Shown one piece after another: positions 13,526-31,805 of a DNA stretch of 31,838 nucleotides. Where the stretch lies: NCBI GenBank assembly GCA_030753015.1, contig JASMDC010000041.1:1-31838 (forward strand), read 5' to 3'. The notes beneath the pieces are model-generated. The model was not told the DNA's origin. It saw only the letters and a program-made list of their open reading frames with translations, and did no database searches. Position 1 is the first letter of the stretch. Every line of letters begins with the position of its first letter. Both the position numbers and the translations under genes were made by a program. The DNA is from Candidatus Undinarchaeales archaeon (GTDB lineage Archaea > SpSt-1190 > JASMDC01).

Positions 13526-13555
13526 CCTCGACACCCGTCCCGTACTCATCCACGC

Positions 13556-13933: not shown

Positions 13934-14132
13934 TGTTCGCACCACCAAGCACATACGCGGTCCGCGCCTAAATGCGCTTGCCCCTCCCCGCGGGGGGGAC
14001 CTGCGCCCGCACCCCGGCGGAGGAGTGCGTCCACCACGGCCGGTCATGCACACGTCCCGCATCGCTTATAAGGTCACAGCGGCTCTTAGTTCGTAAAGAG
14101 ATGGTCACCAACTACCGCAAGAGCGTGATACC

Positions 14133-14462
14133 ATGGCGATAATCGATCTGACATCCAAGAACTTCGAGCAGGTTGCACTGAAGAGCGAGGTCCCGGTGCT
14201 CATCGACTTCTGGGCAGATTGGTGCAAGCCGTGCAAAATGATGCATCCCGTGTTCGAGCAGCTGTCGGCCGAGTACGGTGAGAAGGTCAAGTTCGTCCGG
14301 GTGGACATCGACGAGGAGAATCAGCTGGCCATGCAGTACGGCATCCGCAGCATCCCCACCCTCCTCGCCATGCGCGAGGGCATGGTGGTGGGACAGTTCA
14401 TCGGCTTCGGTGACAAGGACGCGGTCATGGCGAAGCTGGACGTCGTCCTCTCGATCCGATAG
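14133..14462 (+). CDS. trxA: Thioredoxin
   Basis: PVLIDFWADWCKPCKM..FVRVDIDE..YGIRSIPTL. Confidence 0.95.
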   Translation: MAIIDLTSKNFEQVALKSEVPVLIDFWADWCKPCKMMHPVFEQLSAEYGEKVKFVRVDIDEENQLAMQYGIRSIPTLLAMREGMVVGQFIGFGDKDAVMAKLDVVLSIR

Positions 14463-14501
14463 GGGCTTGCACCGTCCGCAGCGGTCGAAAGGTTGAAATG
14501 G

Positions 14502-14867
14502 ATGAGGTGTCGACCCCGCCCCATAGCGACCTTCGCCTGCCGCAGCGTCTCGTTCAAGGGTATCGTTACCTGTGGGTTCGAGCTCTCAAGGACCGAGTAC
14601 ACCGTGATGATGCACCTTCTCTCCGACGCCGAGGAGCTCACGGCGAGCGAGATAGCCAAGGACCTGGCAAAGGACCGCACCACCGTCCAGCGCGCCGTGA
14701 TGTCGCTCACCGGAAAGAACATCCTACGCCGCCGACAGTCCAACAATCCCCGGGGCGGGTATACCTTCTTCTACTCCATCAAGGACAAGGACCAGCTCAA
14801 GCAGCGGATCCTCGACATCATCGAGCAGTGGACCGCAGAGATACGCCGTGAGATGACCGCTTGGTAG
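14502..14867 (+). CDS. Archaeal TrmB/MarR-like winged-helix transcription regulator
   Basis: FAC..IVTCGFELSRTEY..LTASEIAKDLAKDRTTVQRAV..RRQ.N..GGY.F.Y..W; start uncertain. Confidence 0.85.
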   Translation: MRCRPRPIATFACRSVSFKGIVTCGFELSRTEYTVMMHLLSDAEELTASEIAKDLAKDRTTVQRAVMSLTGKNILRRRQSNNPRGGYTFFYSIKDKDQLKQRILDIIEQWTAEIRREMTAW

Positions 14868-17800: not shown

Positions 17801-19371
17801 TAGGAGGTGGAGTAGTAGGTCCGCCGTTGGGCGGGGCTGGGGAGGTGGCACTCCTCGGGGACCATGGACGTCGCCACGGTCTCCTCGTCCCACGGTGCGA
17901 CATCGCAGGCATCGCTCAGGTCCACGTCCTCCAACGCGGGGTTCTGGAACGTACCCAGGGTGCCCAGGGCCACAGCACAGTGGTCCTTCTGCTGATCGAG
18001 GGCGTCCTCGAGCGCTTCCAGGTGGGCTGCGAGCACCTCGTACAGGTCGCGGAGGTTGTCGAGCGTGGTGAGCACATCGGTGCGGAAGTCGACCGTGTTG
18101 TCGAACCAGCCCTCGGGACAGGCGATCAGCCCCGTGTCGAGCACGCTCAACGGTGTCGGGTCCGTATCGGTGTGGGTCCAGTCGACCGTCGGCGAGTAGT
18201 CGTGGACCTCGCCCGCCTCGCCCTCCGCCCGCTCGCGGCAGAACCGGTCGCCGATGGCCTGACCACCGTCGTCCACCTTCACGGGTTCGGGCCGACCGCT
18301 GCCCTTCAGCAGGCCGTACACGGTGGACCGGAACGCAGGCTCGCAAAGGTTCTTCTGGAACTCTCCGGCGGCGTTGGCGGTACCGGCCTGGTCGTTGCCC
18401 GCAAGCGCCACGATGTACCGTCCGCCCTGCTCCTCGAAGGCCACGATGAAGGGCGCGTCGTACCGCAGGGCCAGCTCGCCCGCGGTGAAGTCCAGCTCCT
18501 CGCTGCCCACGTACACCTTGTTGGCGGCCTGGTCGTACCGCACCCGCATCCCGTCCTCCACGCCGTCGAGCACCGAGTTGGACGTGCTCGAGCCCAGGAG
18601 CACGAGGTTGCCGCCGGGGACCGCGCCTGTGTGCTCGACCACCGCCATACCGAGCTCGGCGCCCAGCACGAGGGCCTTGGCCCGGTCATGGCTCCCTACC
18701 CCGGAGCCGTACACGACCGTGCCATCGCCGCCTGTGCACTTCCCGTCGCTGCAGCCCTCGTAGCACGGGTAAGCGTCGCCGTTCACGACCAGCGGCACAA
18801 GACCGTCGTTGGACCTGATCGACGCGTCGTACTGGCGGACGTTGTCGGGGGAGAACAATCGGTCGTACGCGTCACAGTAGCGCTCGTGGTCGGGCTCGAT
18901 GCATCCCTCGGGGAGAGGGCCTGAGGGACCGGAGGGACCGCCGGGGCCTCCCGGACCACCGGGACCGCCCGGACCGGGTGTCGGGGTCACCGCTCCAACG
19001 GGCACGGTGACGGAGATATAGGTACGACAGCCGGGGCCCATGTCGTAGGCGCCGCAGTCGACCCGGCCCTGGCACCGCAGTGAGTAGGTGCCCTCCACGT
19101 CGTAGGTGACGTCCACGACGCTGTTCCACGCGTCGCCCCAGATGAACTGGCCCGAGGAGTAGTCATCGATGTACATGTCGATGTGGTTCTCCTGGGAGTC
19201 GGTCCCGGTGCACTTCACCGTGACGGGCGCCTCAGCGCTGGCGGCAGCGACGCTCCCGTCGTTGGAGGATGAGTGGATCTGGGCACCGTTGACGAACACG
19301 TTCACCGTGGGCCGGGCCAGCGCAAGGGCCAGCGCGAGCACGCACAGGACCGCGAGCATCCTCGACCTCAT
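14875..19371 (-). CDS. Giant secreted Cys-rich protein C (1498 aa): signal peptide, Pro/Gly linker, S-layer-like domain, helical scaffold, Cys repeats, DxDGD Ca-binding motifs, Ig-like domains, 8-Cys C-terminus
   Basis: ATG 19371 overlaps the upstream stop as ATGA; leader MRSRMLAVLCVLALALALA; shares KDVCTLDGSG, ITDGNTD.W, WCEG..YP.A.LEV and the terminal Cys motif with genes A and B. Confidence 0.92.
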   Translation of the reverse strand: MRSRMLAVLCVLALALALARPTVNVFVNGAQIHSSSNDGSVAAASAEAPVTVKCTGTDSQENHIDMYIDDYSSGQFIWGDAWNSVVDVTYDVEGTYSLRCQGRVDCGAYDMGPGCRTYISVTVPVGAVTPTPGPGGPGGPGGPGGPSGPSGPLPEGCIEPDHERYCDAYDRLFSPDNVRQYDASIRSNDGLVPLVVNGDAYPCYEGCSDGKCTGGDGTVVYGSGVGSHDRAKALVLGAELGMAVVEHTGAVPGGNLVLLGSSTSNSVLDGVEDGMRVRYDQAANKVYVGSEELDFTAGELALRYDAPFIVAFEEQGGRYIVALAGNDQAGTANAAGEFQKNLCEPAFRSTVYGLLKGSGRPEPVKVDDGGQAIGDRFCRERAEGEAGEVHDYSPTVDWTHTDTDPTPLSVLDTGLIACPEGWFDNTVDFRTDVLTTLDNLRDLYEVLAAHLEALEDALDQQKDHCAVALGTLGTFQNPALEDVDLSDACDVAPWDEETVATSMVPEECHLPSPAQRRTYYSTSYQRVVDVKDVCTLDGSGTLLGDEATHGPALVAEKVTVLRSFVDHFLATYPDLRTTISALVDTELTEISLSGEEPPYDAVPLVERLSDILIEMSRDPDTDTDAEEFKAMLADLIRMLRTSATVEDVSTLGHVYPGLMLADRCGPGEGDITDGNTDEWSARQQQAVQALAAIEAEDMFISAEECFEYASRSEAGCSRICREECGAEVGHCQRHLGMCVCHNPDGTRTTTTYSCTGPIVEEDAKRIIACCLDDLGGIAAVPPTLGEGGSCSGPDVPGLTFDICGDESGYLCCLPGGLEAEERADDSCTLECGPMCALVHPGDEDARIACVGTCSSAVGCADRDGDSCVLGASEGKCCGGSCVAGASGCDTGSDVGCAGSGDGEACTSAVGVCCGGSCALDATDCGSLGTCNEMCQALVAIDQVSACTSACVEMDVSCELECGVFPDPGPCLRKCGNGADEDGDDRVDEDPVDGRDNDGDGRMDEDGAGESVPPSLVTCQRGCLNGDDAESCLRECKLSMPRVDVRLAILRGLAEQRTFYHGERVRLSLEVRNSGFRSFAGAADLSLHLLPSCSCPECPKGFVCPCSCTEDRRFAGSLSSIVLPPGADYRALTGEIALNGDLTVTAVQPGAVLRRAGGEVVLDARGPISFMVVPDMLTVADAYFLRDGERTSEGYTGEQVTGAVAVTAHTYPVTVEVFLADAQNRVVEGSARVHEVTGPVQELGIATEELVLSAEMANAVFSIGVEVRDADGAVVERQVLPGQGYATSRCKGRVMNTWCEGERARVRLGYPDASLEVRPLELEITEAAFTDAANNPLDEMYTAGEARATLTVRNTVPKSFVGTVLVRAVSKEGLVVGGSEERRTVALGRGDTSELTGQMFPTTMGESYRLWVVAEHQDGTVWTDALVPSNVFVYAALGVLDPTATEGERTDIYTTVSQDPCSVSIYCADCLVGCELRVDRERCTMSKRFCACECTSLPL

Positions 19372-22300
19372 GCAATCGCCTCCAGGATGCAATCGCAGTC
19401 ACAATTATAAGGAGTGACGGTGCAGCGCCCCCGCTCGATACGCAGCTCGCAGGTCGAGAGACATTGCACGCACGCGACCCGTGCCCGGCAGCCCTCGTGG
19501 TCCATGGATGTGAACACGTCGTTGCGGGCGATGCCACCGGTAGCGCTCTGGGGGATGTTGAGCCCGGCCATGGGGAAGAGGACCGTCGGGACGACCTCGT
19601 CGAGCCATACTGCGCCGTCGCGGGCATGTGCCGTTACCCGGACCCGCAGCGTCATCCCGGGGGTCGCGTCGACGGGGGCCGACTCCGCCGTCATCGTGGA
19701 GCCCCTGTCATCGAGCCCGCGGTCGACGGCGACCTCGCGCTCCGATTCGGTGATGGCGAGACCGTCGTCGCCGATTATGGCGATCGTGACCGTGCCCGTG
19801 AACCCCGAGGACGCCTGGTTGGCCAGCTCCACGCGCACCCGCACCGTGCGGGCAGCGGACCGCCCGCCGACCACAGATCCGCCGTCGTCCACGAAGGCCG
19901 CATCGGTCACCACAAGGGCAGGCCGACGTACCTCGAGGAACGCACGCGGGTACGAGAGGCGCACACGCTCGTGGAGGCCCTCGCACCAGGTCAGGAGAGC
20001 AGGTCCCGTGCACAGGTCCGCGGCCCGTCCCTGTTCGAGGAGGATACCCTCGGCGAGAGTGGTACCGCCGCCCTCGACGCGGTAGCCGATCCGGAACAGG
20101 AGGTCGGCCTGGGTGCCGGTGATGTCGAGCGGGGCCGAGGTGAAGGTGCTCTCCTTGACGGGCCATGCGATCTCGTGTGTGCGCTCGGTACCGATTACCG
20201 GCGTACCGTCCCAACCGACGAGGTATATTGTGAGGGAGACGGGGACCAGCTGCGTGGTGAACGACACCGCACCGAACGCCTCCTCTCCCGGATGCCCGGT
20301 GGTGGCACGCTCGCGCCCGCCCACCGTGAACCACGCGTCGGCCACCGTGAGCTTGCCCGGCGCACCTATCCCGTAGAAGGGGCCGTGCGGTTCGCCGACG
20401 ATCTTGCCCGCAGCGTCTCGGACGGTGGCGACCGGGCGGACGGTCGTGCCCGCCAGGGAGGCGCCGAGCTCAACGGGGTCCGTGAGGACGCCCTGCTTCT
20501 GTCCCGGGCCGACCACGAGCTGTGTGGTGGTGAGGATGACGAGCTCTTCTACCGAGCAATCGCACGGGCAGTCGTCGCCGACGGGGCACACGGAGCACGC
20601 GCAGTCGCGGTTGATCTCAAGGACCACGTCGACCTTCCCGGTGAAGCCCGTGCCGCCCCGGTTCTCGACGGTGAGATGCAGCCGGGGGCGTTCACCGGTG
20701 TGGAACGACTCGGCCTCCTGCCCGTCGCGCACGAGGGCGAGGGACGCGTGGATCCGGGGGTGGACGGCGCGGCACATCTGGAGGCAGAGGGTGATCTCGG
20801 GCAGGTCGTCCGAGCTGGTCAGGCAGCCCAACTCGCAGTGCCGCAGTCCTTCCGGCATGGAGGGCGAGGCGACGCCCGGACAGCCCTCAAAGCACATCGA
20901 GCGTGCCCCGGACAGCGGGAACTGGTCGATGCATCGCAGCTCGCAGGCGATGTCGGCACCCTCGCAGCGCTGTCGGCATGCCTGGGCGAGGGCCGGGCGC
21001 TCGGGATAAGCGTTCTGGCACTCTGTGAGGCAGCTGGCGGCAAGGCACGGCGGCCAGCCGCGGGGCCGGTCGCACGACGAGGCGAAACGCACGCACGCGC
21101 CCGAGCCCGGGTTCAGGGCGAAGGTGACGACCTCAGGGCATGCACCGCACGACTTCCCGCCGGTCGCGCAGGAGCCGCCGCAGCAGACGCCTGTCGGTCC
21201 GTCCACCTCGCACACGCCGCCCTCGACCGTGTCCGCACAGAGCGATGGTACGTCCTCGCAACCGTTGGCGCCGGCAACGCACCCCCCTCCGCAGCATAGC
21301 CCGGACGCACCGTCGATGCTGCATTCGGCGCCGTCATCGGCGCTGACGCAGCCGTGACCGGGGCAGGCCGACCATCCGTACGGTGCATCGCACGGCGAGG
21401 GGAAGCGCACGCACTTGCCCGATAAGGGATCCTTTGCATAGGTGTCGACCTGCTCGCACGTCATGCACGAACTGGCGCCCACGGCACAATTACCGCCACA
21501 GCAGGTGCCGACACCCTGTCCGACGAGGCAGGGCAAGCCCTTCCCATCGTCACCGCACGCGGTGTCCGGGACGCACCCCGTGGCACCTACTGCACACGAG
21601 CCTCCGCAGCACTGGCCCTGGGCGCCCGCGACGGTGCAGGCGGTGCCGTCCTCCTGACCCGTGCAGCCGAAGCCGTCGCAGTCGGTCCAGCCTGCGGGGA
21701 CGTCGCACGTGGACTCGAACCGCGTGCACCCGCCCGCGTTGGGATCCCGGACCCACACCGGCGAGCGCGGGCAGGCGGTGCACTCCTCGCCGCCCGTGAG
21801 GCAGCGGCCGCCGCAGCACACACCATTCTTATTGTCAAAGGAGCAGGATGCCAGCTCGTCACGGCCCACACAGGCATCGACACGACCCGCGCACATGAGC
21901 GCGTGGACCATGCACTGGTCATCGCAGCAGAGGCCCTGTACACCGTCTACCTCGCACGCGCTCTCATCACCCTTCCCGGCGCACTGCTCGTCCTGCAGCC
22001 CGCAGGCATGCCGGCAGACGAGGCGTCTTGTGGAGTGGCGTGCATACTTGCCGTCGCACAGCTCCTCGCAGGAGAGACCGCACCCTTCCTCGGTGATGGG
22101 CAGCTCGGGCTCGAGGCCCGGTCCCCGGCAGCAGAGCTCGTCGACGGTCTCGGTGCACCAGCTCACGGATATACCCGTCGACGCCCGCGCCCCCGGGCCA
22201 AGGCGACATGCACCACCCCACCGGTCCTTGTAGGCCGGGTCGGATAACCGGGATACGGTCACGATCCCGTCGGGCTGTGAGGCATGGACGAGCGAGTCAT

Positions 22301-25262
22301 CACCAGTGAATATGCCCGCGTGGACGACTCCTTCACCATCCTCACCCCTGAGGAACACCACGTCGCCCGGGCGAAGCTTGCGCCATCCGACGCGACCGCC
22401 GCCGTTGGCCTCGCATGCTTCGTGCTGCGCTGCCGGCGTGCGGGGGAGCTCGACGGCGACCTCGCGCATGACGGCGAGCACGAGACCTGCCCCGTCGACA
22501 CCGTCACGCGATGTTCCACCGTTCACGTAGGGTACTCCGAGCCAGGTACCCGCAGCGTACGCGATGGCACCGCCGCTCCATGTGGTCCCCTCGACATCGT
22601 AGATCCGCTGGCAGCATGTGGTGAGCGAGTCGGACCCGCCGTCCGTGCCGTCCTCTCCGGGGATGGGAGCGTCCGGGCCCGGGACATCCTCTCCCGGGGG
22701 TATCTCTCCAGCCGCCCCGTCGGGCGTCGCGCCCGGTGTCGAGCCGGAGCTCGAGCCTGGTGAGGACGATCCGGGGTAGGAGTTACCGCCACCGCTGGTC
22801 GTGTCGTAGCCGAAGCACATGCCGTCGGTGAGGAACAGTCCTTCCGGATCCCACGCAGCGAGCGCCAGGAGGTTGGCGAGGCCGTCACCGGACCAGGCGT
22901 CCGTGTTGCCGTCGCTGATGGACGTTGATGTCACGGTGGCGTAGCAGCCGCCGCGCTTGCCCTGGGGCGGGCAGTCGTCGAGGTGCGAGGGCGGGCCTTG
23001 GTCGGACGTGTCATCGTCGGGCTTCTGCTCCTCCTCGGGCTCCTCAGCGTCCTCGTCCCCGGTCCCGTCCTCCTCTCCATCCTCCTCGCCCAGCTCCGTG
23101 CACTCCTCGCCCTCGAACAGGGCCGGGAAGCTCGCGTCGCAGTCCTCCGCGTTGGACCAACCCTCCGAGGACTGGACTAGGAAGGCCTGCGCCGTCGCGC
23201 TCATCCCCCCCGCCGCACCGATGTCGCCGACGTACTCCTTGAGGAAGAGGACAAGGGCCTTGAGCCCCTCCTGGGTGGGCTCTACCTTGTCGGCGTTCTT
23301 GGACATGGCGGTGAAGAGCTCGGCCTCGTGGAAAAGGAGGAATATATTGCTCGAGCCTTCCAGCACGGGCTTGGGATCGGTGGCCACGCCGTTCACCCTG
23401 ATCTCGAAGTGCAGGTGCTGGCCCGTGGAGCAACCCGTCGTCCCCATCAGTCCGATGCGCTCGCCCTGCTCGACGACCTGGCTCATGGTCACGTCGATGT
23501 GCCTGAGGTGGGCGTACCGCGTCTGGAGGCTGTTGCTGTGGTCGATGAACACCGCGTTCCCATAGCAGCCTCCCGAGGAGGCGAGGAGGATCGACGCGAC
23601 CTTGCCGGCGGCTGCAGCGACGACGGGGACCGTACCGGACTCGGCAATGTCGTACCCCTTGTGGACGTGGGGCTTGCACAGTCTGGTGTCCGCGCACAGA
23701 GCGTCCCGTTGCCCGAAGGGCGACGTCTCGTGCCCCTCGGTGGGCCAGATTATGGCGTCCTTGTCGTCCAGCTTCTTGCGCGTTTCTTCCGCCATCTTGT
23801 GGACCTCGTCGGTCAGCTCCTTGAGCGTGTGGACGAAGTCCTGCATGTCACTGATGACCACGTCGAGCCTTGCTATGACCTCGGTAGGTCCGTGCGCCCC
23901 GTCGTCGCCCAGGAAGGTCCCCGAGCCGTCGAGGGTGCACACGTCCTTGACGTCCACGGCGTCCTGCTGGCACTGCTGGAGCGCGATGCGGTCCACGTTG
24001 GCATGTTTGCCCTTCTCGGTGGCGAGGTAGGTCTTCCTGCCGTCGTCGAGGTCCTTGGGCTCGCACCCCTTGACACCGAACGGGTCCGAGGTCTCTGTCA
24101 GACCTCCGTCCTCGGGGACCGGGTAGGTGGTATCGGCGCCCCAGCCCGCGTCGGTGGTGATCTCTGTGATCGTCGGCTCCGGCCCATCGCTCTCCTCCTC
24201 ATCGTCGTCCTTCTCTCCGCAGGTGCCGCACCCGGTGCCGGTCTCGCAGTCCTCGGCCACGCACATGCTGCACGTCCTGACGGCCGCAGGGAGGTGGCCT
24301 GAGCCCTTCTTGCACTTCCAGGCCTCGTCCGCCAGGCAGGTCTCGGCGACCGCCTGGTAGCACAGTTCCGGACCGAAGCCGTCGCCGATGACAAGGGCCT
24401 CTAGCGGGTGGGCCTCCGTGACATCGGGCTCGTACACGGGCGCCGGCTCCTTTTCCTCGGGCATGAGGTCGCCCTCGATACCCTCGCTCGGCGTGTAGGG
24501 CTCCTCTTCCTCCGCGGTCGTCGTCACGGGCTCCTCCTCGGGGACCTCCTCATCACCCTCGTCCCCGGCGTCATCGCTCGGTGCGAAGGGTTCCATCTCG
24601 CACGGTACACCGTACCGTGATGCGAACCTGTTGATCCTCCCGTGGCACTTCGCCTGCTGTGCGTAGAACGAGTCGCGCAGCGCCTTCAGTTCGTCGACGA
24701 AGGGCTCGTAGAACTCGATGAGGTCATCGAACAGCGTCTCGACCTCGGTGAGGTAGTCCACGACGTTGTTGTAGTTCTCGACCTCGGGGCACTCGGGCAG
24801 CTTGCGTTGTTCTCCTGCCCCGGACGTATCGTCCTGGCCGCCGTCGGTGCTCACATCGCCGGTCCCTTCCTCGGTACCTGCACCCGTGCCCGTCCCGGTC
24901 CCTTCCTCTGCGTCCGTCACTTCCTCTTCCGTGCCGAGGGAGGTCAGGTCGAGCTCCTCCTCGCCGGTATAGAGCAGCTGGTTGCCGGCCTCGTCCGCGT
25001 CCTCGGCACCGAAGCGCTCCTGTATATAGGCCTTGCAGGGGCTCACGCTCTCCTGTCCTCCGGGGAAGCAGAACGCCATGTGATGGGTCTGGGCATCGCC
25101 TGCTGCGGGCAGGTCCATGGGCGCGGTCTCGTACTTGACGTCGGCGCAGGGATCCACGAACTCCTCGGGTCCCTCGCCCAGGACGGGCGTCAGCACCAGG
25201 AGCGCGACCGCTAATGCAATAGCTGCGGCCATCCTCCCGATGCAAAGGGACCTTCGTACCAT
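19368..25262 (-). CDS. Giant secreted Cys-rich protein B (1964 aa) with an M23 peptidase and a catalytically dead NlpC/P60 domain
   Basis: Signal peptide MVRRSLCIGRMAAAIALAVALLVLTPVLG; GAGGT upstream; colinear with gene A over most of its length. Confidence 0.93.
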   Translation of the reverse strand: MVRRSLCIGRMAAAIALAVALLVLTPVLGEGPEEFVDPCADVKYETAPMDLPAAGDAQTHHMAFCFPGGQESVSPCKAYIQERFGAEDADEAGNQLLYTGEEELDLTSLGTEEEVTDAEEGTGTGTGAGTEEGTGDVSTDGGQDDTSGAGEQRKLPECPEVENYNNVVDYLTEVETLFDDLIEFYEPFVDELKALRDSFYAQQAKCHGRINRFASRYGVPCEMEPFAPSDDAGDEGDEEVPEEEPVTTTAEEEEPYTPSEGIEGDLMPEEKEPAPVYEPDVTEAHPLEALVIGDGFGPELCYQAVAETCLADEAWKCKKGSGHLPAAVRTCSMCVAEDCETGTGCGTCGEKDDDEEESDGPEPTITEITTDAGWGADTTYPVPEDGGLTETSDPFGVKGCEPKDLDDGRKTYLATEKGKHANVDRIALQQCQQDAVDVKDVCTLDGSGTFLGDDGAHGPTEVIARLDVVISDMQDFVHTLKELTDEVHKMAEETRKKLDDKDAIIWPTEGHETSPFGQRDALCADTRLCKPHVHKGYDIAESGTVPVVAAAAGKVASILLASSGGCYGNAVFIDHSNSLQTRYAHLRHIDVTMSQVVEQGERIGLMGTTGCSTGQHLHFEIRVNGVATDPKPVLEGSSNIFLLFHEAELFTAMSKNADKVEPTQEGLKALVLFLKEYVGDIGAAGGMSATAQAFLVQSSEGWSNAEDCDASFPALFEGEECTELGEEDGEEDGTGDEDAEEPEEEQKPDDDTSDQGPPSHLDDCPPQGKRGGCYATVTSTSISDGNTDAWSGDGLANLLALAAWDPEGLFLTDGMCFGYDTTSGGGNSYPGSSSPGSSSGSTPGATPDGAAGEIPPGEDVPGPDAPIPGEDGTDGGSDSLTTCCQRIYDVEGTTWSGGAIAYAAGTWLGVPYVNGGTSRDGVDGAGLVLAVMREVAVELPRTPAAQHEACEANGGGRVGWRKLRPGDVVFLRGEDGEGVVHAGIFTGDDSLVHASQPDGIVTVSRLSDPAYKDRWGGACRLGPGARASTGISVSWCTETVDELCCRGPGLEPELPITEEGCGLSCEELCDGKYARHSTRRLVCRHACGLQDEQCAGKGDESACEVDGVQGLCCDDQCMVHALMCAGRVDACVGRDELASCSFDNKNGVCCGGRCLTGGEECTACPRSPVWVRDPNAGGCTRFESTCDVPAGWTDCDGFGCTGQEDGTACTVAGAQGQCCGGSCAVGATGCVPDTACGDDGKGLPCLVGQGVGTCCGGNCAVGASSCMTCEQVDTYAKDPLSGKCVRFPSPCDAPYGWSACPGHGCVSADDGAECSIDGASGLCCGGGCVAGANGCEDVPSLCADTVEGGVCEVDGPTGVCCGGSCATGGKSCGACPEVVTFALNPGSGACVRFASSCDRPRGWPPCLAASCLTECQNAYPERPALAQACRQRCEGADIACELRCIDQFPLSGARSMCFEGCPGVASPSMPEGLRHCELGCLTSSDDLPEITLCLQMCRAVHPRIHASLALVRDGQEAESFHTGERPRLHLTVENRGGTGFTGKVDVVLEINRDCACSVCPVGDDCPCDCSVEELVILTTTQLVVGPGQKQGVLTDPVELGASLAGTTVRPVATVRDAAGKIVGEPHGPFYGIGAPGKLTVADAWFTVGGRERATTGHPGEEAFGAVSFTTQLVPVSLTIYLVGWDGTPVIGTERTHEIAWPVKESTFTSAPLDITGTQADLLFRIGYRVEGGGTTLAEGILLEQGRAADLCTGPALLTWCEGLHERVRLSYPRAFLEVRRPALVVTDAAFVDDGGSVVGGRSAARTVRVRVELANQASSGFTGTVTIAIIGDDGLAITESEREVAVDRGLDDRGSTMTAESAPVDATPGMTLRVRVTAHARDGAVWLDEVVPTVLFPMAGLNIPQSATGGIARNDVFTSMDHEGCRARVACVQCLSTCELRIERGRCTVTPYNCDCDCILEAIA
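22200..22570 (-). other. NlpC/P60 domain in protein B, catalytic Cys replaced by Gly
   Basis: WLGVPYVNGGTSRDGVD-G-AGLV (GGG codon at 22493-22491, Gly924), LPRT, LRPGDVVF, HAGIF and LVHAS. Confidence 0.9.
23360..23755 (-). other. M23-family zinc endopeptidase domain in protein B
   Basis: WP..G..TSPFG.R, HKGYD (HxxxD; H534/D538), V.AAAAGKV, YGNAVFIDH, TRYAHL, IG.MGTTG.STGQHLHFEIR (HxH; H616/H618) and DP..L. Confidence 0.95.
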
Positions 25263-25292
25263 GTCTCATTGACCTCTCATATGTTCTCTGTC

Positions 25293-28200
25293 CTATATTG
25301 CTCCCATGATGCACTCGCAGTCGCACTGGTCGCGGGTGACCGTGCACCTCGTCCGGTCCACACGCAGCTCGCAGGTGGTAAGGCATTCGTCGCACCTGAT
25401 GCTGGCCTGGCATCCCTCGTGGATTATCGTTGTGAAGATCGTGTTCCGCACCAGTCCCTCGGTCGTGTCCTGGGTCACGGTCAGCTCGGCGAACGGGAAG
25501 AGCGCGGCGGGTACGATCTGGTCGAGCCAGGTCCTCCCGTCAATGTCCGTGGCCTGGACCCAGATGCGGAAGGACGCGCCCGGCTTGGGCCACACGAAAC
25601 CTGACTCTACCTCGATGGACGAGCCTGCGCCCTCCAGGCCACGGTCGACGCCCAGCGCCACGACCGACTCGGGGACCGCCATGCCGTCGGTTCCAACGAC
25701 CTTCACGACCACGGTCCCCTCGAACCCCTGCGCGGCCAGGTTGGTCAGCTCGATCTTCGCCCGGACCGAGTCGCTCCCGGATAGCCGGTTCACGGCGAAT
25801 CCATCGTTGTCGACGAATGCCGCGTCGGCCACGTCGAGCATGGGTCGCTTCACTTCCAGGTAGGCGTCAGGGTAGGAGAGCTTCACGCGCTCGTGCAGCC
25901 CCTCGCACCACGTGGTGAGGTCGCGTCCCTCGCACAGACCGGGTGGTCTGCCCTGTTCGTCTAGCGTGCCCTCGGCCAGGACCGCGCCGGATGCATCCGT
26001 CACCTTGTACCCGAGCCGGATGACGAAGTCCACGTGGGCGGTATCGACCTCGAGCTCGCCCGTGGTGAACGTCTCCATCCTCGTCGGCCAGGTAATGGTG
26101 TGGGCCCAATCGGTGCCCTCGATGGGTTCCCCGTCCCACCCGACCATGAACAGGTCGAGCGTCACGGGCACCTGGTCGGTGGAGAACACAACGAACCCAA
26201 CCGCGTCCTCACCGGGGTAGGCGGCGGTAGCGCGCTCACGGTCGTTGACCAGGAACGACGCGTCGTTCACCGCAAGCTTCTCGGCCTCACTGATACCATA
26301 GAAACTGCCCAGGGGCTTGCCTATGACCTGGTCGTAGGTATCGCTGACGATGGCGACTGGCTGGACGGTTGTGCCAGCAAGCTCGCTCTGCAGGGTGACC
26401 GGGTCGGTGAGGTACCGCGCCTTCTCGCCGGGGGCGAGCATGATGTTGTCGAGCGAGAACACCTGGCGTTCATCCTCCTCGCAGTCGCAGCTGCACATGT
26501 AGTCGTCCGGACAGGGCTCGCACTCGCAGGCGTCGAGCACCCGCAGTGAGACGTCCATGTCGCCCGCGAACCCGGCGCTGCCGCGGTTCTCCACCTCCAC
26601 CCGCATGCGCGGGCTCTCGCCGGTGAAGAACGACTCGGCCTCCTGGCCGCCGCGGAGCAGGGCGAAGGTCACGTGGACGCGCGGGTGGATGGCCCGGCAC
26701 AGCCTGAAGCACAGCAGGGTGGGCGCGGGCTCGCCATTGTTGAAGTCGATGCAGTCCTCCTCGCACCACCGGAGGCTCTCGGGCATCAGTTCGGTGATCA
26801 CACCCGGACAGCGCTCGATGCACGCAAGTCGCTCGTCGCGTCCTGCGAAGTCCATGATGCAGCGCTCCTCGCAGGATATGTCCATCGTCTCGCACAGCTC
26901 CCTGCAGTTGCGCGCCAGGGACGGGTTCTCAGGGTACTCGTTCTGGCACTCGGAGAGGCAGCTCTCCACGATGCACGGTGGCCATCCCTTTGGCACGTCG
27001 CATGGTGTCGAGTACTGCTTGCACTCCTGGGTCACCGGATTGAGGGCGAACGTGACCACCTGGGGGCAGCCACCGCAGATGGTGCCACCCAGCACGCAGT
27101 GGCCACCGCAGCACACTCCGTCCTGGTCATCGGACTCGCACGCTCCACCCTCGGCCTTCCCCTCGCAGGGAACGGTATCGAGGACACATTGCGTACCGCC
27201 GACGACGCACCCATTGCCGCAGCAGATGCCGCGGTCCTCGTCCTTGGTGCACGCGGCACCGTTGATGAGACCAGCACAACCGTACCCTTCGCAGGCGGTG
27301 AACCCGTACGGGACGTCGCAGGGGGTAGAGAACTCCTTGCACGCATCCGTTACCGGGTCCTTGGCATGGGTGATCGCCTGCACGCACTCGCCGCACCGTG
27401 TGCCGCCCACCGCGCACTTCTCGCCGCAGCACACGCCGGGCACGTCCCTGGCATAGCACGGGACGCCGTTGCCCATGCCCTGACAGGTGTCGTCGGGCAC
27501 GCAGTCCTCAGCGTTGAGTGCGCAGGTGAAACCGCAGCATACGCCCAGTTCGCCTTCTTTGGAGCACTCGTACGTCTCGTCCGCTTCGGTGTCGCACCCG
27601 AAGTTCTCGCAGTCGACCCAGCCATCGGGCACATCGCAGGTGTTGGTGAACTTATCGCAGGCACCAGTATCGGGATTCTGAGCGTAGACTGTCATGTCCT
27701 TGCAGGAGCTGCAGTCACTCTCGCCGGTGAGGCACCGGCCTCCGCAGCACACGCCGGACTCGCCGTCGAAGGAGCAGGCGTCCAGGCTCATCAAGCCCAC
27801 ACAGACCTCCACCCGGCCAGCGCACATCAGAGCATGGACCATGCACTGCTCATCGCAGCACAGGCCCTTCATCCCGTCCACCTCGCAACCGGTCTCCTCC
27901 GGCTTGCTAGCGCACTGCTCGTCACGGGCACCGCACTTGTGCCGACAGACGAGGTACTTGAACGAGTGGCGCTCGTACTTGCCCTCGCACAGCTCCTCGC
28001 ACGTGAGACCACACTCCTCCTCGGTGATCTTCTTCTCGAGCTCGAGGCCGGGGCCCTGGCAGCATAGCTCCTCGGTGTCGTCCCCGCACCAGTCGATATC
28101 GAGCGCCTCGTAGCTGGCGCCGCCCTCCACGTACCGGCACCCGCCGGTCCAGTGCTCGCGGAAGTAGGAGTTGGAGAGCTGGACGATCTTGACCACATCG

Positions 28201-31200
28201 CCCGGCTTGGGCGCGTGGATCATCCGGTCGTTGCCCGTGTAGACGCCAACATGCGAGACACCGGGCTTATAGGTGTTCTCGAAGAACACGATGTCACCCG
28301 CCTGCAGATCGCCCCAGTCGACGTACGTCCCGCCGTTGCTCTCGCAGGCGAAGTACTGCTGCGAGGCGGTCCGGGGCACGTTGATGCCGTTCTCTCTGAG
28401 CACGTTCAGGGTGAGCCCCGAGCAGTCAACGCCCGAGCGGCTGGTGCCGCCGAACACGTAGGGCACGCCCAGCCAGCTCCGTGTAGTGTCCACGATGCCT
28501 CCGCCGGCCCAGGAGGAGTCCTCTATACCGAAGATGCGCTGGCAGCACTGCACGAACGGGTCCTTCTCGCTCTCGGGGATATCCTCTCCTGGTGTGATAG
28601 TGCCGTACCATGAGCCACCACCATCGATGGCGAGCGGTACCTCACTGCTATCGCCGTCGTCGACGGCCATCCCGCCACCCTCCTCGGTGTCGTAGTTAAA
28701 GCAGTCGGCGTCGTTGATGAAGAGCTTTTCCGGATCGATTTCCTTCATGAGGTCCAGCAGACGCGTGTCCGTCCACGCATCCGGGTTGGTATCGGTCACG
28801 GTGATGAGCGCCTCGGTCGCGTTGCACCCGCCCCGCTTCTTCTTCTCCGCGCAGATGGGTACAGGACGCCTCTCGGTAACGTTGCAGTCAACGGACCCGT
28901 CGATGGTGAAACCAGTGACATTTTCCACGAGCTGGTCGAGCCCGGTCTCAGTGTCGTTGAGCGGCTCGCACGTCTCCTTGTCGAAACGGGGACGCAGGTG
29001 CGGTGAGCATTTTTGCTCGTACTCCCAGTCCTTTGACGACCGGACGATGAACGAGGTGACGTTCTCGAAGAAGTCGGTGGTGGTGACATCGTTGGTAAGG
29101 TTACCTTTAACGAAGTTGACGAGGTTCTTGAGATCGTTCTGAGTGGCATTGACCTTCTCCATCCCGTCGGTGATGGTCTTCTCGAACTCGGCCAACGTCC
29201 CGGGATCGAGCGCGCTCGAGTTCACGTCCTCTAGGCTATCGGAGTTCTGCCCCATCAGCTCCTTCGACAGAGTGGCCGAGCGCTGCATGTTCTCCACGTA
29301 CGTCTCCATGATGGCGATGAGCGAGTCGAGCTTCTCGAGCACCTCCGTGGGGCCGTGCCCCTTGTCATCGCCGATGAAGAGGCCGGAGCCATCGAGGGTA
29401 CAGACGTCCTTTAGGTCGGCAGCCTCACGCTGGCAGCCCTCGAGCTCGAGCGGTTTGGCGACCGCATTGTAGCCCTTGACCGAACGGATGATGCCCTGTG
29501 CGCCGGACCCGAGGTCCTGGTACTGGTTCTTCTTGCACTCGGCGATGCCGAACGGCTCGGTCGCGAGGGTGGTGTTCATATCCTCGGTCCACTCCTTGAT
29601 GGTAGAGCTCTTCCCCGGGAGCTCCCGCCCCTCACGGTCCAGCTCGACCCATACCATATCGAACTTCTTCACGTTGCAGTTCATGGTGTCGTAATCGTAC
29701 TCAGTGATGACACCCTCATCATTGGTCTCGTAGCCGATCAAGCACGCGCACTCGGCACTGGTGAGGAGGAAATCGTTCCGACATTTCTCTTCCATCTCCA
29801 GGCGCTCGGGCTGTGAGAACACGTCCATGCAACCAGATGTGGTGCTCTTGCACTGCCAGGCACGCACGAATGCCTTCTCCTCAAGGTCTTCGATGTAGGA
29901 CTTCTTACAACAGACATAGGTCTCCTCGCAAAGAACCCCCTGCCCGGGGATGCCCCCTGCCATGCAGGGCGGGAGCGTGAGCTTACCGTTCGCGGCGTTC
30001 CCGCAGGTGGTGCAGTTTTGTCCGTAGCAGCACGGTTCGATCGTGCACATGGGGCACGACATGATCTCGGTGACGTTCCGGGTCCCGTTAACACCAGGAT
30101 CTATGTTGCACGCCCACCCTCTATTGGCGAGGCATCGGTCGGCAACCGCCTTTCCGCATACGCTGGGATCGAAGGAATCGTCAACGATAGCAGACTCGAT
30201 AGTGGCGTTGTTCTTGTCCGTGAGCTCCTTCATCCCGCATCCGTTGGCGTACGCCTCGATGAAGTCGTTGATGTCCGCATGACAAGCGGCCTGTTGGGAC
30301 GCGACCGCGGAGCGGAGCACTTTAACGTAACCGATGAGACGGGTGTAGAAGCCGGAGAGGTCCTCCACGAGCTTGATGTACTCGTCGCCGAAATCGGCCT
30401 TGTTGTCGTAGGAGGTACGCTCCGGGCACTTGAGGGCGCCGAAGTCGAGGGGCTGCAGTACAACGTCCTGGGCCTTGGCCGCGGCGTTCTCAGCAGCATT
30501 GCCCGCTGCATTCTCTGCAGCGCTGGGATCACTTTCACCCGCATTGGCGAACTTCCACTCCTCGGAGACGGGGACGGTGGTCGCCGTCTGATCAGCACCC
30601 TCGGGGGGGGTGTCCGGTGCGGAGTAGCTAATCCGCACATCGGGGATGAATCCCTTCACTGACGGATCGAGGGACTCGATAACGTTTACATGTCCTCCCT
30701 CGCCGTAGATATCACGTCCGAGGCGCGAGGTGTAGAACATCTGCCCGGGTTCCTCATAGGTGAAGGTGAGGCGTCCCGCGTCACTCTCCGACCCGATGGC
30801 GATCTTCTTGCCCTGCCCGTCCCGTAGTCCGTGCTTCTCGATGTAATCGATGCAGGCGGCCCGGTCGTACCCGGGTGACGAGTCCGTCTGTTTATCGGTC
30901 CCGTTCTTCTGCACGACGCAGAACTCCACGTGATATCGGCGGTCGCTCCCTGCAGCAGGCTCACCGGTTACCTGCAGCTTGACATCGGCGAAGAGACAGG
31001 GATTCTCAGCAAGCTGGCCAGAGGTGAGGTCCGTGAACGCTGTCTTATCCCCGTCACCCTTGTACTGGGTGACCTCGGTGCCGTTGTGGACCTTGAGAGA
31101 GTCTTTTGAGAAGAAGCCCTGGTCCCCCTTCATAGACTTCCAGAGGACATCCATACCATTTTCGAAGGTATTGTTGATGAGATCCTGGGGGAGCTTGTTG

Positions 31201-31805
31201 TCCACCCCGCAGGTGGCACGCTTACTGATATCCAGGTCGTCGGTGATGATGGACCAGTTATCATATCCGTCCCCTTTCACCTGCCACTTTCCCTCGTGAT
31301 ACCTGTACCGCCGGTTGCCGCAGAACATGTTCCCATCGGTGTACTCGATCTCCAGGGACGTGCCCCAGAGCTCCTGACCGGTGATATTGAGGGTAGTCAT
31401 GGTCTCTGCGGGTGGTTTTGAGTAGGGTTCGGGTGTGGGCTCGGGCGTGGGTTCGGGCGTGGACGTCGGTGGAGTTTCCTCTGGCTGTTGTGCGACAACT
31501 TCCTCGCACTTCCCGTCCATGCCGCAATTGAGGCCGTCATAACACAGAGAGCCGCAGCACTCCTTGTCTTTCTCGCCGCAGTGCTGCCTGCACACGTCCT
31601 CGGTCATTTGATCGTAGATATCGTCCTTCGTGCTGTCGACGGGGTCGCACTGCTCGTTGACAACGTCCCCCACCGAGTTGACGATCTCGTACTTATCCGT
31701 GTCCTTGTTCAAGCAACAGAACACCTTGTTGTCGGCCGCCATCGCGATGAGCATGACGACGACCGCTAGCGATACTGCGAATCTGAGTCCATTTCCCCTT
31801 TCCAT
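25293..31805 (-). CDS. Giant secreted Cys-rich protein A (2170 aa) with an intact NlpC/P60 domain
   Basis: Signal peptide MERGNGLRFAVSLAVVVMLIAMAA; PEPT linker; shared scaffold motifs; 30-bp gap to gene B. Confidence 0.93.
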   Translation of the reverse strand: MERGNGLRFAVSLAVVVMLIAMAADNKVFCCLNKDTDKYEIVNSVGDVVNEQCDPVDSTKDDIYDQMTEDVCRQHCGEKDKECCGSLCYDGLNCGMDGKCEEVVAQQPEETPPTSTPEPTPEPTPEPYSKPPAETMTTLNITGQELWGTSLEIEYTDGNMFCGNRRYRYHEGKWQVKGDGYDNWSIITDDLDISKRATCGVDNKLPQDLINNTFENGMDVLWKSMKGDQGFFSKDSLKVHNGTEVTQYKGDGDKTAFTDLTSGQLAENPCLFADVKLQVTGEPAAGSDRRYHVEFCVVQKNGTDKQTDSSPGYDRAACIDYIEKHGLRDGQGKKIAIGSESDAGRLTFTYEEPGQMFYTSRLGRDIYGEGGHVNVIESLDPSVKGFIPDVRISYSAPDTPPEGADQTATTVPVSEEWKFANAGESDPSAAENAAGNAAENAAAKAQDVVLQPLDFGALKCPERTSYDNKADFGDEYIKLVEDLSGFYTRLIGYVKVLRSAVASQQAACHADINDFIEAYANGCGMKELTDKNNATIESAIVDDSFDPSVCGKAVADRCLANRGWACNIDPGVNGTRNVTEIMSCPMCTIEPCCYGQNCTTCGNAANGKLTLPPCMAGGIPGQGVLCEETYVCCKKSYIEDLEEKAFVRAWQCKSTTSGCMDVFSQPERLEMEEKCRNDFLLTSAECACLIGYETNDEGVITEYDYDTMNCNVKKFDMVWVELDREGRELPGKSSTIKEWTEDMNTTLATEPFGIAECKKNQYQDLGSGAQGIIRSVKGYNAVAKPLELEGCQREAADLKDVCTLDGSGLFIGDDKGHGPTEVLEKLDSLIAIMETYVENMQRSATLSKELMGQNSDSLEDVNSSALDPGTLAEFEKTITDGMEKVNATQNDLKNLVNFVKGNLTNDVTTTDFFENVTSFIVRSSKDWEYEQKCSPHLRPRFDKETCEPLNDTETGLDQLVENVTGFTIDGSVDCNVTERRPVPICAEKKKRGGCNATEALITVTDTNPDAWTDTRLLDLMKEIDPEKLFINDADCFNYDTEEGGGMAVDDGDSSEVPLAIDGGGSWYGTITPGEDIPESEKDPFVQCCQRIFGIEDSSWAGGGIVDTTRSWLGVPYVFGGTSRSGVDCSGLTLNVLRENGINVPRTASQQYFACESNGGTYVDWGDLQAGDIVFFENTYKPGVSHVGVYTGNDRMIHAPKPGDVVKIVQLSNSYFREHWTGGCRYVEGGASYEALDIDWCGDDTEELCCQGPGLELEKKITEEECGLTCEELCEGKYERHSFKYLVCRHKCGARDEQCASKPEETGCEVDGMKGLCCDEQCMVHALMCAGRVEVCVGLMSLDACSFDGESGVCCGGRCLTGESDCSSCKDMTVYAQNPDTGACDKFTNTCDVPDGWVDCENFGCDTEADETYECSKEGELGVCCGFTCALNAEDCVPDDTCQGMGNGVPCYARDVPGVCCGEKCAVGGTRCGECVQAITHAKDPVTDACKEFSTPCDVPYGFTACEGYGCAGLINGAACTKDEDRGICCGNGCVVGGTQCVLDTVPCEGKAEGGACESDDQDGVCCGGHCVLGGTICGGCPQVVTFALNPVTQECKQYSTPCDVPKGWPPCIVESCLSECQNEYPENPSLARNCRELCETMDISCEERCIMDFAGRDERLACIERCPGVITELMPESLRWCEEDCIDFNNGEPAPTLLCFRLCRAIHPRVHVTFALLRGGQEAESFFTGESPRMRVEVENRGSAGFAGDMDVSLRVLDACECEPCPDDYMCSCDCEEDERQVFSLDNIMLAPGEKARYLTDPVTLQSELAGTTVQPVAIVSDTYDQVIGKPLGSFYGISEAEKLAVNDASFLVNDRERATAAYPGEDAVGFVVFSTDQVPVTLDLFMVGWDGEPIEGTDWAHTITWPTRMETFTTGELEVDTAHVDFVIRLGYKVTDASGAVLAEGTLDEQGRPPGLCEGRDLTTWCEGLHERVKLSYPDAYLEVKRPMLDVADAAFVDNDGFAVNRLSGSDSVRAKIELTNLAAQGFEGTVVVKVVGTDGMAVPESVVALGVDRGLEGAGSSIEVESGFVWPKPGASFRIWVQATDIDGRTWLDQIVPAALFPFAELTVTQDTTEGLVRNTIFTTIIHEGCQASIRCDECLTTCELRVDRTRCTVTRDQCDCECIMGAI
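28131..28500 (-). other. NlpC/P60 (C40) cysteine hydrolase domain in protein A, Cys-His-His triad intact
   Basis: WLGVPYVFGGTSRSGVDCSGL (TGC at 28424-28422, Cys1128), VPRTASQQY, LQAGDIVFF, SHVGVY and MIHAP. Confidence 0.95.

Follow-up and report, generated by a model that had tools for sequence, protein, structure and literature searches.

Two neighbouring giant proteins encoded by a marine archaeon carry the same NlpC/P60 peptidase domain in two different states: in gene A the domain is live by its motifs, and in gene B it has lost its catalytic cysteine and is almost certainly both dead and conserved, in a protein that also carries a predicted live M23 metallopeptidase domain. The two genes and a third paralogue, C, lie in a window of 31,838 nucleotides, the whole stretch of DNA analysed here, and we would put at about even the chances of the reading taken as a whole, in which this tandem triplet of giant proteins acts on bacterial peptidoglycan and the dead domain serves as a recognition module.

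All three genes are read from the minus strand, A at 25293..31805 (2170 aa), B at 19368..25262 (1964 aa) and C at 14875..19371 (about 1498 aa), and from their open reading frames and translations A and B are Cys-rich giants that are predicted to be secreted, while the translation of C is that of a paralogue without NlpC/P60 or M23. Only 30 nt separate the stop codon of A from B, whose ATG is preceded by a GAGG-like stretch, and the ATG of C overlaps the TGA stop of B in the junction sequence (ATGA). From this tight packing we infer that A, B and C form a tandem triplet that is probably co-transcribed; the stretch was matched in no RNA run. Convergent with C, on the plus strand, Pfam identifies a thioredoxin gene (14133..14462) and a TrmB/MarR-like HTH gene (14493..14867), and both also adjoin the C counterpart in the sister species (tblastn, 71% and 85% identity). 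The same contig carries a TBP gene (E 1.6e-53), so the host of A, B and C, a marine organism, is an archaeon; the gene also argues against the contig being a bacterial mis-bin. The orthologous contig of the sister species (G001) encodes MCM, TFIIE-alpha, Topo VI A/B, eIF-1A, NMD3 and RIO1.

Protein A has an N-terminal hydrophobic leader, judged by eye, and a Cys content of 6.2%. Its NlpC/P60 domain (28140..28469, minus strand; residues 1113-1221; Pfam NLPC_P60 E 2.4e-25, and recovered in the whole-genome family scan) scores 89 bits against a gathering cut-off of 23 and thus belongs to PF00877 (C40). The motif GVDCSGL occupies residues 1125-1131, with the TGC codon of Cys1128 at 28422-28424, and the triad columns are filled by Cys1128, His1185 and His1197, with Tyr1116 also present. 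Compared with its counterpart in the sister species the domain is 96% identical with a dN/dS of 0.03, and on these sequence comparisons it is strongly constrained. In our reading A would act as a live NlpC/P60 endopeptidase with gamma-D-Glu-diamino-acid specificity.

The corresponding domain of B (22209..22538, minus strand; residues 909-1018; Pfam NLPC_P60 E 1.4e-15) is likewise a member of PF00877, with 57.6 bits against the cut-off of 23 and a match to model positions 1-103 of 105, and it has Gly924 in place of the cysteine. Here the motif reads GVDGAGL (residues 921-927), the Gly924 codon being GGG at 22491-22493, and when A, B and C are aligned it shares its columns with GVDCSGL of A. The substitution at one scaffold position, TGC to GGG, that an earlier note on this DNA had reported is thus exact in motifs, codons and alignment columns. 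When B is aligned by phmmer with Spr/MepS of E. coli (2k1g), Gly924 comes to lie opposite the Cys of GIDCSGF, the established nucleophile of that enzyme, and His981 and His993 opposite both Spr histidines. Tyr912 (PYVNGG) is retained too, so that the B of this window keeps the tyrosine and both histidines as had been claimed, but the third triad position is Asn rather than His in two of the four B-type proteins, a residue that is also common there among Cys-bearing domains (21 of 128 surveyed). No extra Cys has appeared in the domain of B relative to A, each non-catalytic Cys of A's domain being matched in B. B therefore lacks what marks an active C40 peptidase, since the nucleophilic Cys of the D-C-S/T-G motif is replaced by Gly. 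Across the 128 surveyed domains the nucleophile column holds 121 Cys, 5 Gly and 2 Ala, and in the host and sister genomes together six of eight NlpC/P60 domains have Cys, with Gly in the two B copies only.

It is exceedingly improbable that the GGG codon arose in sequencing or assembly and that B truly encodes Cys. Contigs of three runs from three studies (X2, X8 and X12) show no differences at 22491-22493, the check having been made on Logan contigs (assembled sequence, not raw reads) for the three of four runs that cover the codon. A change from TGC to GGG takes two base changes, the sister species (G001) has the Gly codon GGT, and all four B-type proteins found have Gly, including the orthologues at 86% and at 54-55% identity. 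Orthologues of B thus do keep a non-Cys residue, and these sequences place the loss of the nucleophile before the split of the two known species.

The M23 metallopeptidase domain of B (23373..23666, minus strand; residues 533-630; Pfam Peptidase_M23 E 2.9e-27, and recovered in the family scan) reaches 95.2 bits against a cut-off of 28.7 and so belongs to PF01551. Its motifs, H534-x3-D538, H585 (YAHL) and H616-x-H618, align to the solved M23 peptidases 6muk and 3slu, and the metal and catalytic motifs are intact in all four B-type proteins. Following the lysostaphin/LytM literature, we take HxxxD and HxH to be the Zn ligands, with a further catalytic His. The AF2 model has a pLDDT of 75-95 across the domain and is poor elsewhere in residues 430-1040 (mean pLDDT 53). 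EnvC, NlpD and ActS are among the matches of B's M23 domain. B would then display a live M23 metallo-endopeptidase, with a bond specificity that, from family knowledge, is plausibly complementary to that of A. The intact HxxxD and HxH motifs bear out one half of the claim that B had gained an M23 domain; as to the gain, the scaffold tree is ((A,B),C) and B alone of the three has M23, which by parsimony weakly favours it.

C has no Pfam match even at E<=1, in agreement with the report that it has neither domain, and is 90% identical to its sister-species copy. The three genes belong to one family of giant Cys-rich paralogues, at least 17 in number and predicted to be secreted, among which the payloads have been shuffled: all four PF00877 and all four PF01551 matches of the host genome fall within giant-family ORFs, other members carry C-type lectin, FG-GAP, Kazal or SLT domains (the last at 21.8 bits, cut-off 21.3), and the B of G001 has an additional sub-threshold glucosaminidase-like domain. 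Common to the whole family is a C-terminal scaffold (in B, 19371..21065, minus strand; 24-row alignment A2), modelled in B (AF2, pLDDT 82) as a helical region rich in Cys, followed by some four beta-sandwich domains and, at the terminus, a Cys-rich knot. Foldseek likens this model to tandem Ig/macroglobulin-like sandwiches at TM values of 0.24 or below. The scaffold family is lineage-restricted: of 1.84 billion representatives, no more than 34 have it. One way to view this architecture is as a conserved C-terminal beta-sandwich stalk that would carry variable enzyme or binding modules. A payload swap between A and B, as originally proposed, is a loose description, given that NlpC/P60 is present in both and B has an additional M23 insert. 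Nor do these genes form a polymorphic toxin system, in which a conserved N-terminal part precedes a variable C-terminal toxin and an immunity gene is adjacent; here it is the C-terminal part that is conserved, variation is found in N-terminal or central positions, and the ORF list and Pfam give no small immunity-like gene within the triplet or behind it.

The dead domain has kept its length, with 145/145 and 142/145 positions aligning between orthologues. In the close pair it is the best-conserved segment of B, at 93% identity against 88% for the whole protein, and in the distant pair the values are 52% and 55%. Its dN/dS of about 0.35 is close to the average of B (range across B 0.17-0.55) and equals that of B's other, non-enzymatic parts, compared with 0.03 for the live domain of A, although the synonymous divergence of B is near saturation (pS 0.61-0.64) and these values are therefore rough. 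The same contrast is seen in pN, at 0.33-0.37 for the dead domain and 0.02 for A's live one, and in the distance that separates orthologues in the tree of the domain, at 1.43 against 0.08 (about 17-fold). On the scaffold tree the B orthologues are the fastest pair in the family (path 0.91; A, 0.08; C, 0.11). Since the dead domain evolves faster than its live counterpart, with a dN/dS like that of the rest of B, it is not singled out as specially constrained.

The earlier reading of these domains as wall-directed had overlooked the archaeal host and the matter of murein synthesis, and the wall in question is most likely that of bacteria. In the host genome, which is 98.9% complete, we found no match to the Mur ligase (PF08245) or transpeptidase (PF00905) families, and by this measure no genes for murein or pseudomurein synthesis. 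This, together with the confinement of wall-hydrolase domains to the giant family, points to bacterial murein as the probable target, and the most likely substrate would be the peptidoglycan of bacteria that serve the archaeon as targets of attack, as food or as a surface for adhesion. The closest named relatives of the NlpC/P60 domains, at 40-53% identity, are for the most part wall hydrolases from Bacillota, which their sources annotate as C40/NlpC/P60 or CwlO. M23 and NlpC/P60 folds are able to cut non-murein substrates, and at E<=1 none of the three proteins has a Pfam match to a recognised peptidoglycan-binding domain (LysM, SH3b, PG_binding or similar). Both points would suit enzymes directed at the archaeon's own envelope, at other archaea or at peptides (poly-gamma-glutamate, proteins), as does the remark, in the available part of PMC12352652, that bonds outside peptidoglycan are in principle open to some catalytic domains. 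We consider such a target improbable, as one family unites NlpC/P60, M23 and SLT domains above their Pfam cut-offs with a sub-threshold glucosaminidase-like domain, the nearest relatives are bacterial wall hydrolases, and the genome is without a Mur-ligase-type gene able to build a murein-like polymer.

For the dead domain itself, we propose that it would be kept as a folded non-catalytic module and would serve B, which is without a canonical wall-binding domain, in the recognition of stem peptides or peptidoglycan. This is a tentative reading, somewhat short of an even chance, and it leans on analogy with RipD (Rv1566c) of Mycobacterium tuberculosis, whose NlpC/P60 domain is reported to have become one that binds peptidoglycan without cutting it (Both et al. 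2014, via PMC12067865) and which, according to the portion of PMC12067865 available to us, is proposed to recruit other hydrolases. Both proteins retain in evolution an NlpC/P60 fold that has lost its nucleophile. As described there, however, RipD is small and bacterial and acts on the wall of its own cell, with Cys changed to Ala and His to Ser, whereas B is a 1964-aa archaeal protein with Gly at the nucleophile, both His kept (in this copy) and a fused M23 domain. Against the RipD family model (NF033743, NCBIfam) B scores 16.6 bits, far below the cut-off of 215, so B is RipD-like in function at best and lies outside the RipD family.

A regulatory, dimerising or purely structural role fits the data equally well as peptidoglycan binding. 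A module that restrains, activates or dimerises M23, or that mediates contacts among A, B and C, has a precedent in PrgK of Enterococcus pCF10, in which, in the available text of the preprint (10.1101/2024.02.15.580431), a degenerate LytM and an inactive CHAP domain modulate the single live domain, the inactive domains down-regulating it and CHAP mediating dimers. PrgK and B alike hold several wall-hydrolase domains in one polypeptide and retain degenerate ones, only one being active in PrgK; PrgK, as portrayed there, is a bacterial conjugation protein with LytM (M23) and CHAP dead and SLT live, while in B it is M23 that looks live and NlpC/P60 that is dead. Dead M23 proteins also figure in NCBIfam as activators of hydrolases, and the dead domain of B accompanies M23 in 4/4 orthologues. 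Some 280 residues nevertheless separate the two domains, the AF2 inter-domain regions, with pLDDT below 50, yield no predicted contact, and the retention of Tyr912 and the catalytic His in this window's B fits ligand binding at least as well, so that we regard a regulatory or assembly role as unlikely. Equally doubtful is a relic without a function of its own, a folded spacer in a fast-evolving protein, as the average rate, the roughly 17-fold faster evolution than A's domain and the altered third triad residue in half of the B-type proteins would suggest. Against it, there are 0 deletions or frameshifts across a divergence of dS ~1 or more, the segment ranks first in conservation in the close pair, the Pfam match still spans nearly the full model here and positions 1-89 and 1-91 in the P0005 and P0006 copies, and C shows that clean deletion of the domain is feasible in this family when it is not needed.

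The experimental demonstration that archaea attack bacteria with peptidoglycan hydrolases dates only from 2025, with bactericidal activity for two modular enzymes (Strock et al. 2025, PMC12352652), in a screen that, as the available part of that paper describes it, required a known wall-binding domain. The paper also reports M23 homologues in Halobacteriales and Nanoarchaeia. Its proteins and A/B share murein-less archaeal hosts, hydrolase domains of bacterial origin and secretion (predicted for A/B), and the present host is a murein-less archaeon in the sense of that study (TBP present; 0 matches to PF08245 and PF00905). A and B do not, however, combine a catalytic with a recognised cell-wall-binding domain and so would fail its screen. 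The term NlpC is absent from its main text, and the sections available make no mention of a giant Cys-rich scaffold or a conserved dead domain. What is added here is an archaeal lineage with its entire murein-active domain set on a private giant scaffold, without a known wall-binding domain, in which a nucleophile-less NlpC/P60 is retained next to a predicted live M23 across species; proteins of this kind have been recognised in archaea only recently, and the conserved dead domain gives them a new twist. Should the dead domain be a targeting module, the number of archaeal weapons would be underestimated by any screen that insists on a canonical binding domain, and A and B would be a natural live/dead pair for the passage from peptidase fold to ligand reader. 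A fuller picture, to which we give little credence at present, is that A, B and C form one wall-breaching assembly in a polymorphic arsenal of giant stalked exoproteins, at least 17 strong, with which a large-genome member of an otherwise tiny-genome (DPANN-like) class would attack or graze on bacteria. The dead domain would then read stem peptides and so direct the M23 cutter, and would be a type of binding module uncounted in current archaeal-hydrolase screens.

Bacterial-type NlpC/P60 in a non-bacterial host is also found in Trichomonas vaginalis, which according to the title of PMC6299479 uses laterally acquired hydrolases against bacteria; that host is a eukaryote and its enzymes are small, with no mention of a dead paralogue in the available part of the paper. 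A further comparison is with the large murein-hydrolase proteins of 'vampiristic' Woesearchaeota MAGs (DPANN; PMC9723730), which like A and B are very large extracellular archaeal proteins with stacked murein-cutting domains, read as anti-bacterial. In the accessible text, the Woesearchaeota proteins are centred on GH23 transglycosylases and belong to small-genome, symbiont-type archaea, whereas here the host genome is 3.85 Mb, the scaffold family is rare and a pseudo-enzyme has been conserved among the stacked domains. A size of 3.6-3.8 Mb stands out in a class of 0.6-1.2 Mb genomes, which raises the ecological question of what use at least 17 such proteins are to a large-genome marine archaeon in a small-genome class.

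The three giant cysteine-rich paralogues A, B and C are long open reading frames lying head to tail on the minus strand of the window: A at 25293-31805 (2170 aa), B at 19368-25262 (1964 aa) and C at 14875-19392 in the ORF listing, with a likely ATG at 19371 that overlaps the TGA stop of B (ATGA). The gap between A and B is 30 nt. Judged by eye, each of the three starts with a basic-then-hydrophobic leader, and no C-terminal membrane anchor is seen. Cysteine accounts for 5-6% and Asp plus Glu for 16-17% of each protein. B and C are 45% and 29% identical to A, respectively, and in the alignment invariant cysteines are abundant in the C-terminal third common to all three.

Pfam placed an NLPC_P60 domain in A (residues 1113-1221, E 2.4e-25), and in B both a Peptidase_M23 domain (residues 533-630, E 2.9e-27) and an NLPC_P60 domain (residues 909-1018, E 1.4e-15), while C gave zero matches even at E<=1. 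The earlier note had claimed that A and B carry GVDCSGL and GVDGAGL at the same position (TGC to GGG), that B keeps the Tyr and both His residues alongside an M23 domain with intact HxxxD and HxH motifs, and that C has neither domain; this observation is confirmed in every detail. The two motifs occupy the same columns of the A/B/C alignment, with the Cys codon TGC at 28422-28424 and the Gly codon GGG at 22491-22493. Gly924 of B falls opposite the Cys of GIDCSGF in E. coli Spr/MepS (2k1g), His981 and His993 fall opposite both Spr histidines, and the Tyr is kept. Each of the five non-nucleophile cysteines of A's NlpC/P60 region is matched in B, where the nucleophile is the sole cysteine missing relative to A and no new one appears. 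In the M23 domain H534xxxD538, H585 and H616xH618 are in place, as judged from alignment to solved M23 peptidases.

A sequencing error at 22491-22493 would have produced the same motif, but independent copies do not bear this out. The stretch is present in 20 listed metagenome runs (marine, seawater or vent) from 13 studies, with no RNA run listed as containing it. We checked the codon in assembled contigs, not raw reads, from four runs: contigs from X2 and X8, which may include the source sample, cover 22300-22700 and one from X12 covers 22403-22585, each with 0 differing letters, and the X15 contig ends at 22489, short of the Gly codon. Using B residues 480-1040 as query against 5.8 billion proteins gave 15 matches at E<=0.001, four of them B-type: B itself (P0001), P0004 (86% identical), P0005 (55%) and P0006 (54%), the last being the copy of B in G001, the sister-species genome. 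All four read G-V-D-G, as expected if B orthologues keep a non-Cys residue. The Gly codon in G001's B is GGT; TGC to GGG takes two base changes, and an old change via GGC followed by synonymous drift fits. Across the two genomes of the genus, Cys is found in 6/8 NlpC/P60 domains (those of A and of the members typified on contigs C46 and C20, two each) and Gly in both B copies. In a survey of 128 domains, comprising the 8 from the lineage and the best-scoring domain from each of 120 database matches, 121 had Cys, 5 had Gly (the four B copies and P0052, a multi-domain match) and 2 had Ala. The dead domain of B is genuine, old and retained.

We then considered how strongly this domain is constrained. 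It aligns without loss at 145/145 positions against P0004 and 142/145 against P0006. For the close pair (P0004) it is the best-conserved segment (93%, versus 88% overall and 86% for M23), and for the distant pair (P0006) it is average (52%, versus 55% overall and 69% for M23). Ratios of dN/dS between the window genes and their G001 counterparts were obtained by the Nei-Gojobori method with a purpose-written script, in 100-codon windows. A's NlpC/P60 window was 96% identical with a dN/dS of 0.03, and C as a whole was 90% identical at ~0.13. The ratios for B, namely ~0.35 in its two NlpC/P60 windows (48-50% identity), 0.17-0.29 in its M23 windows (63-65%) and 0.25-0.55 in the rest, come from one saturated pair and are rough, since pS is 0.61-0.64. 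A metagenome-contig search for closer B alleles at the DNA level returned 224 pattern matches and no relative, and a protein search with B residues 875-1040 returned zero matches at E<=1e-20.

In a quick IQ-TREE phylogeny of 125 domains, with the multi-domain rows P0051-P0053 left out, A and B cluster (aLRT 92), and the B domains, all four in one clade (100), are set off by a stem of 1.11 changes per site; the path from B to its G001 copy B' is 1.43, versus 0.08 between A and A'. The scaffold tree gives ((A,A'),(B,B')) with support 100 and C,C' as sister (96), and there too the B pair is fastest (0.91, versus 0.08 for the A pair and 0.11 for the C pair). P0005 and P0006 have Asn as their third triad residue, as do 21/128 surveyed domains. 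The domain is thus kept as a folded unit under some constraint, which does not exceed that on the rest of fast-evolving B and lies far below that on the live paralogue in A.

A itself is a mosaic. Residues 1-1050 (window 28566-31805, compared with L036:754-3900 of G001) are 27-48% identical between species, with pS 0.51-0.74, and the C-terminal half including NlpC/P60 is 77-96% identical. The N-terminal half has no Pfam match, and A 130-1080 gave no usable ESM Atlas match; this half may be a hypervariable recognition region.

The C-terminal 660 residues of B match 17 ORFs of the genome, each at least 500 aa long, including tandem members on C53 (the window contig; three), C39 (three) and C27 (two). 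All 4 PF00877 and all 4 PF01551 matches of the genome lie inside this one family; the host's entire set of murein-active domains is found in these secretory-looking, disulfide-rich stalk proteins. A Pfam run on the 14 members beyond A, B and C found NlpC/P60 in the C46 member, M23 in the C41 member, M23 plus SLT in the C21 member (SLT scoring 21.8 bits, with the cut-off at 21.3) and M23 plus an NlpC/P60 with Cys in the C20 member; others carry FG-GAP, three C-type lectin domains or Kazal, and seven of the 14 have no Pfam domain. Explaining the wall-hydrolase label on the scaffold tree takes at least 3-4 gains or losses, and thus payloads have undergone repeated shuffling. In (A,B),C, only B has M23, for which one gain would be weakly favoured over two losses on parsimony. 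In the C21 member (L027), the marginal SLT (aa 1703-1805) sits where other members have the conserved stalk start, and alignment to the scaffold is limited to the last ~250 residues. G001's B (L036:7418-13462) has an extra N-terminal glucosaminidase-like stretch (P0005/P0006 residues ~163-264; PF01832 at 22 bits, under the 30.2 cut-off), which the window's B lacks, and hence payload differs even between orthologues. We rejected a polymorphic-toxin reading of the family, as its conserved part is C-terminal and its variable part N-terminal or central, with no small immunity-like gene between these three genes or following them.

An AF2 model of the last 565 residues of B, built on a 24-row family alignment (mean pLDDT 82), comprises a Cys-rich helical region, some four beta-sandwich domains and, at the end, a small Cys-rich unit. 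Foldseek against the PDB returned tandem Ig/macroglobulin-like sandwiches (complement C3, TEP1, bacterial adhesin stalks) at TM <=0.24, which is a generic stalk resemblance and not family membership. HMMER with the scaffold against 1.84 billion representative proteins gave 34 matches at E<=0.001 and 23 at 1e-10. Among 22 of these (P0018-P0039), 6 share at least 99.8% identity with the genome and the rest 23-85%; the scaffold is a narrow, lineage-restricted family. The model of B 430-1040 (11-row alignment, mean pLDDT 53) was usable only for M23 and part of NlpC/P60.

A gene for a TATA-binding protein (9702-10286, PF00352, E 1.6e-53) is present on the window contig. In G001, where the A'-B'-C' block is part of a 136-kb contig, genes for MCM, TFIIE-alpha, topoisomerase VI A and B, eIF-1A, NMD3 and RIO1 are found no more than 20 kb from that block. 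Thus, the host is an archaeon; this domain assignment rests on protein markers, and no SSU rRNA was found with archaeal or bacterial models. The window is an entire contig (31,838 bases) of an assembly of 3.85 Mb in 117 contigs (G+C 60.3%, completeness 98.9%, contamination 5%). This assembly is one of two from the host genus (3.6-3.85 Mb, ~99% complete, 5% contamination) among the 17 species genomes of the class, of which the remaining 15 span 0.6-1.2 Mb; the genus is a large-genome lineage within a tiny-genome, DPANN-like class. A six-frame scan of the whole genome found neither the Mur-ligase domain PF08245 nor the transpeptidase PF00905, which matched in 12/14 and 10/14 reference genomes, respectively. 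Among the small-genome relatives, family f4 has M23 domains in 4/4 genomes (G007:C3 (L014), G009:C17 and G005:C6 among them); some of the frames are very long (2073, 2297 and 1203 aa), and in L014 several M23-like stretches follow one another.

The earlier note had interpreted the pair as a division of labour, with complementary cutting activities and a pseudo-enzyme retained as a wall-binding module. This reading is partly supported: the retained dead domain stands, and with no murein synthesis genes found in the host the wall in question is probably bacterial. By sequence, A's NlpC/P60 is intact and strongly constrained, and B combines an intact M23 with the long-dead but retained NlpC/P60. 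We propose that A, B and C, probably co-transcribed given the ATGA overlap and the 30-nt gap, would be exported and then act on bacterial peptidoglycan. NlpC/P60 enzymes usually cut within the stem peptide and M23 enzymes usually cut cross-links; on these family properties A would cut the stem peptide and B's M23 the cross-links or bridges. Named nearest relatives of A's NlpC/P60 are mostly Bacillota wall hydrolases (source labels C40/NlpC/P60 or CwlO, 40-53% identity), which fits acquisition of the domain from bacteria.

With its Tyr and both His, the dead domain would be an obvious candidate wall-binding module in B, which is without a recognised one, and RipD is described as a precedent for NlpC/P60 adapted to non-catalytic binding (PMC12067865). 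Equally valid would be a role in regulating the live hydrolase domain instead of binding the wall, as described for PrgK, in which dead hydrolase domains regulate the live one (10.1101/2024.02.15.580431). The three top-scoring matches, P0051, P0052 and P0053 (657-1183 aa; the last a Dehalobacterium sp. MAG protein by source name), have 5-9 tandem NlpC/P60-like domains each. P0051 and P0052 largely lack the canonical nucleophile motif, with only 1 and 2 D-x-S-G-type motifs, respectively, none with Cys, and each looks like a putative repeat binding array.

Bacteria-killing peptidoglycan hydrolases of archaea were described in 2025, with modular homologues in ~5% (175/3,706) of archaeal genomes and M23 domains noted in Halobacteriales and Nanoarchaeia (PMC12352652), and large murein-hydrolase proteins of DPANN have been interpreted as 'vampiristic' tools (PMC9723730). 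In contrast to known archaeal hydrolases, those described here belong to a private stalk family of 17 members, their host being a large-genome relative of archaea with tiny genomes, A and B are without canonical binding domains, and live and dead NlpC/P60 paralogues are adjacent, with the dead copy beside a live M23 and conserved across species. In the open-access literature searched, we found no account of an archaeal protein with a conserved pseudo-NlpC/P60.

Just outside the cluster are a ParE toxin gene (12045-12350, minus), a DUF7557 ORF (13182-13952) and a truncated phage-integrase-family ORF (13556-14062), for which tblastn found no counterpart in ~51 kb around the G001 cluster. A mobile-element reading, prompted by the integrase fragment and ParE, was rejected, since in G001 the A-B-C-HTH-thioredoxin block recurs in a chromosomal setting that lacks both. 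The thioredoxin and TrmB/MarR-like HTH genes of this block (14133-14867, plus) are convergent with the 3' end of C and are kept at the same site in G001 (71% and 85% identity, respectively); the placement of a thioredoxin next to proteins that each contain over 100 Cys may be more than chance. Elsewhere on the contig are an RsgA-type GTPase (3400-4491, plus, E 7e-49), of a kind that is mostly bacterial, and a transglutaminase-like cysteine protease that looks secreted (6865-7908, minus, PF06035/PF01841).
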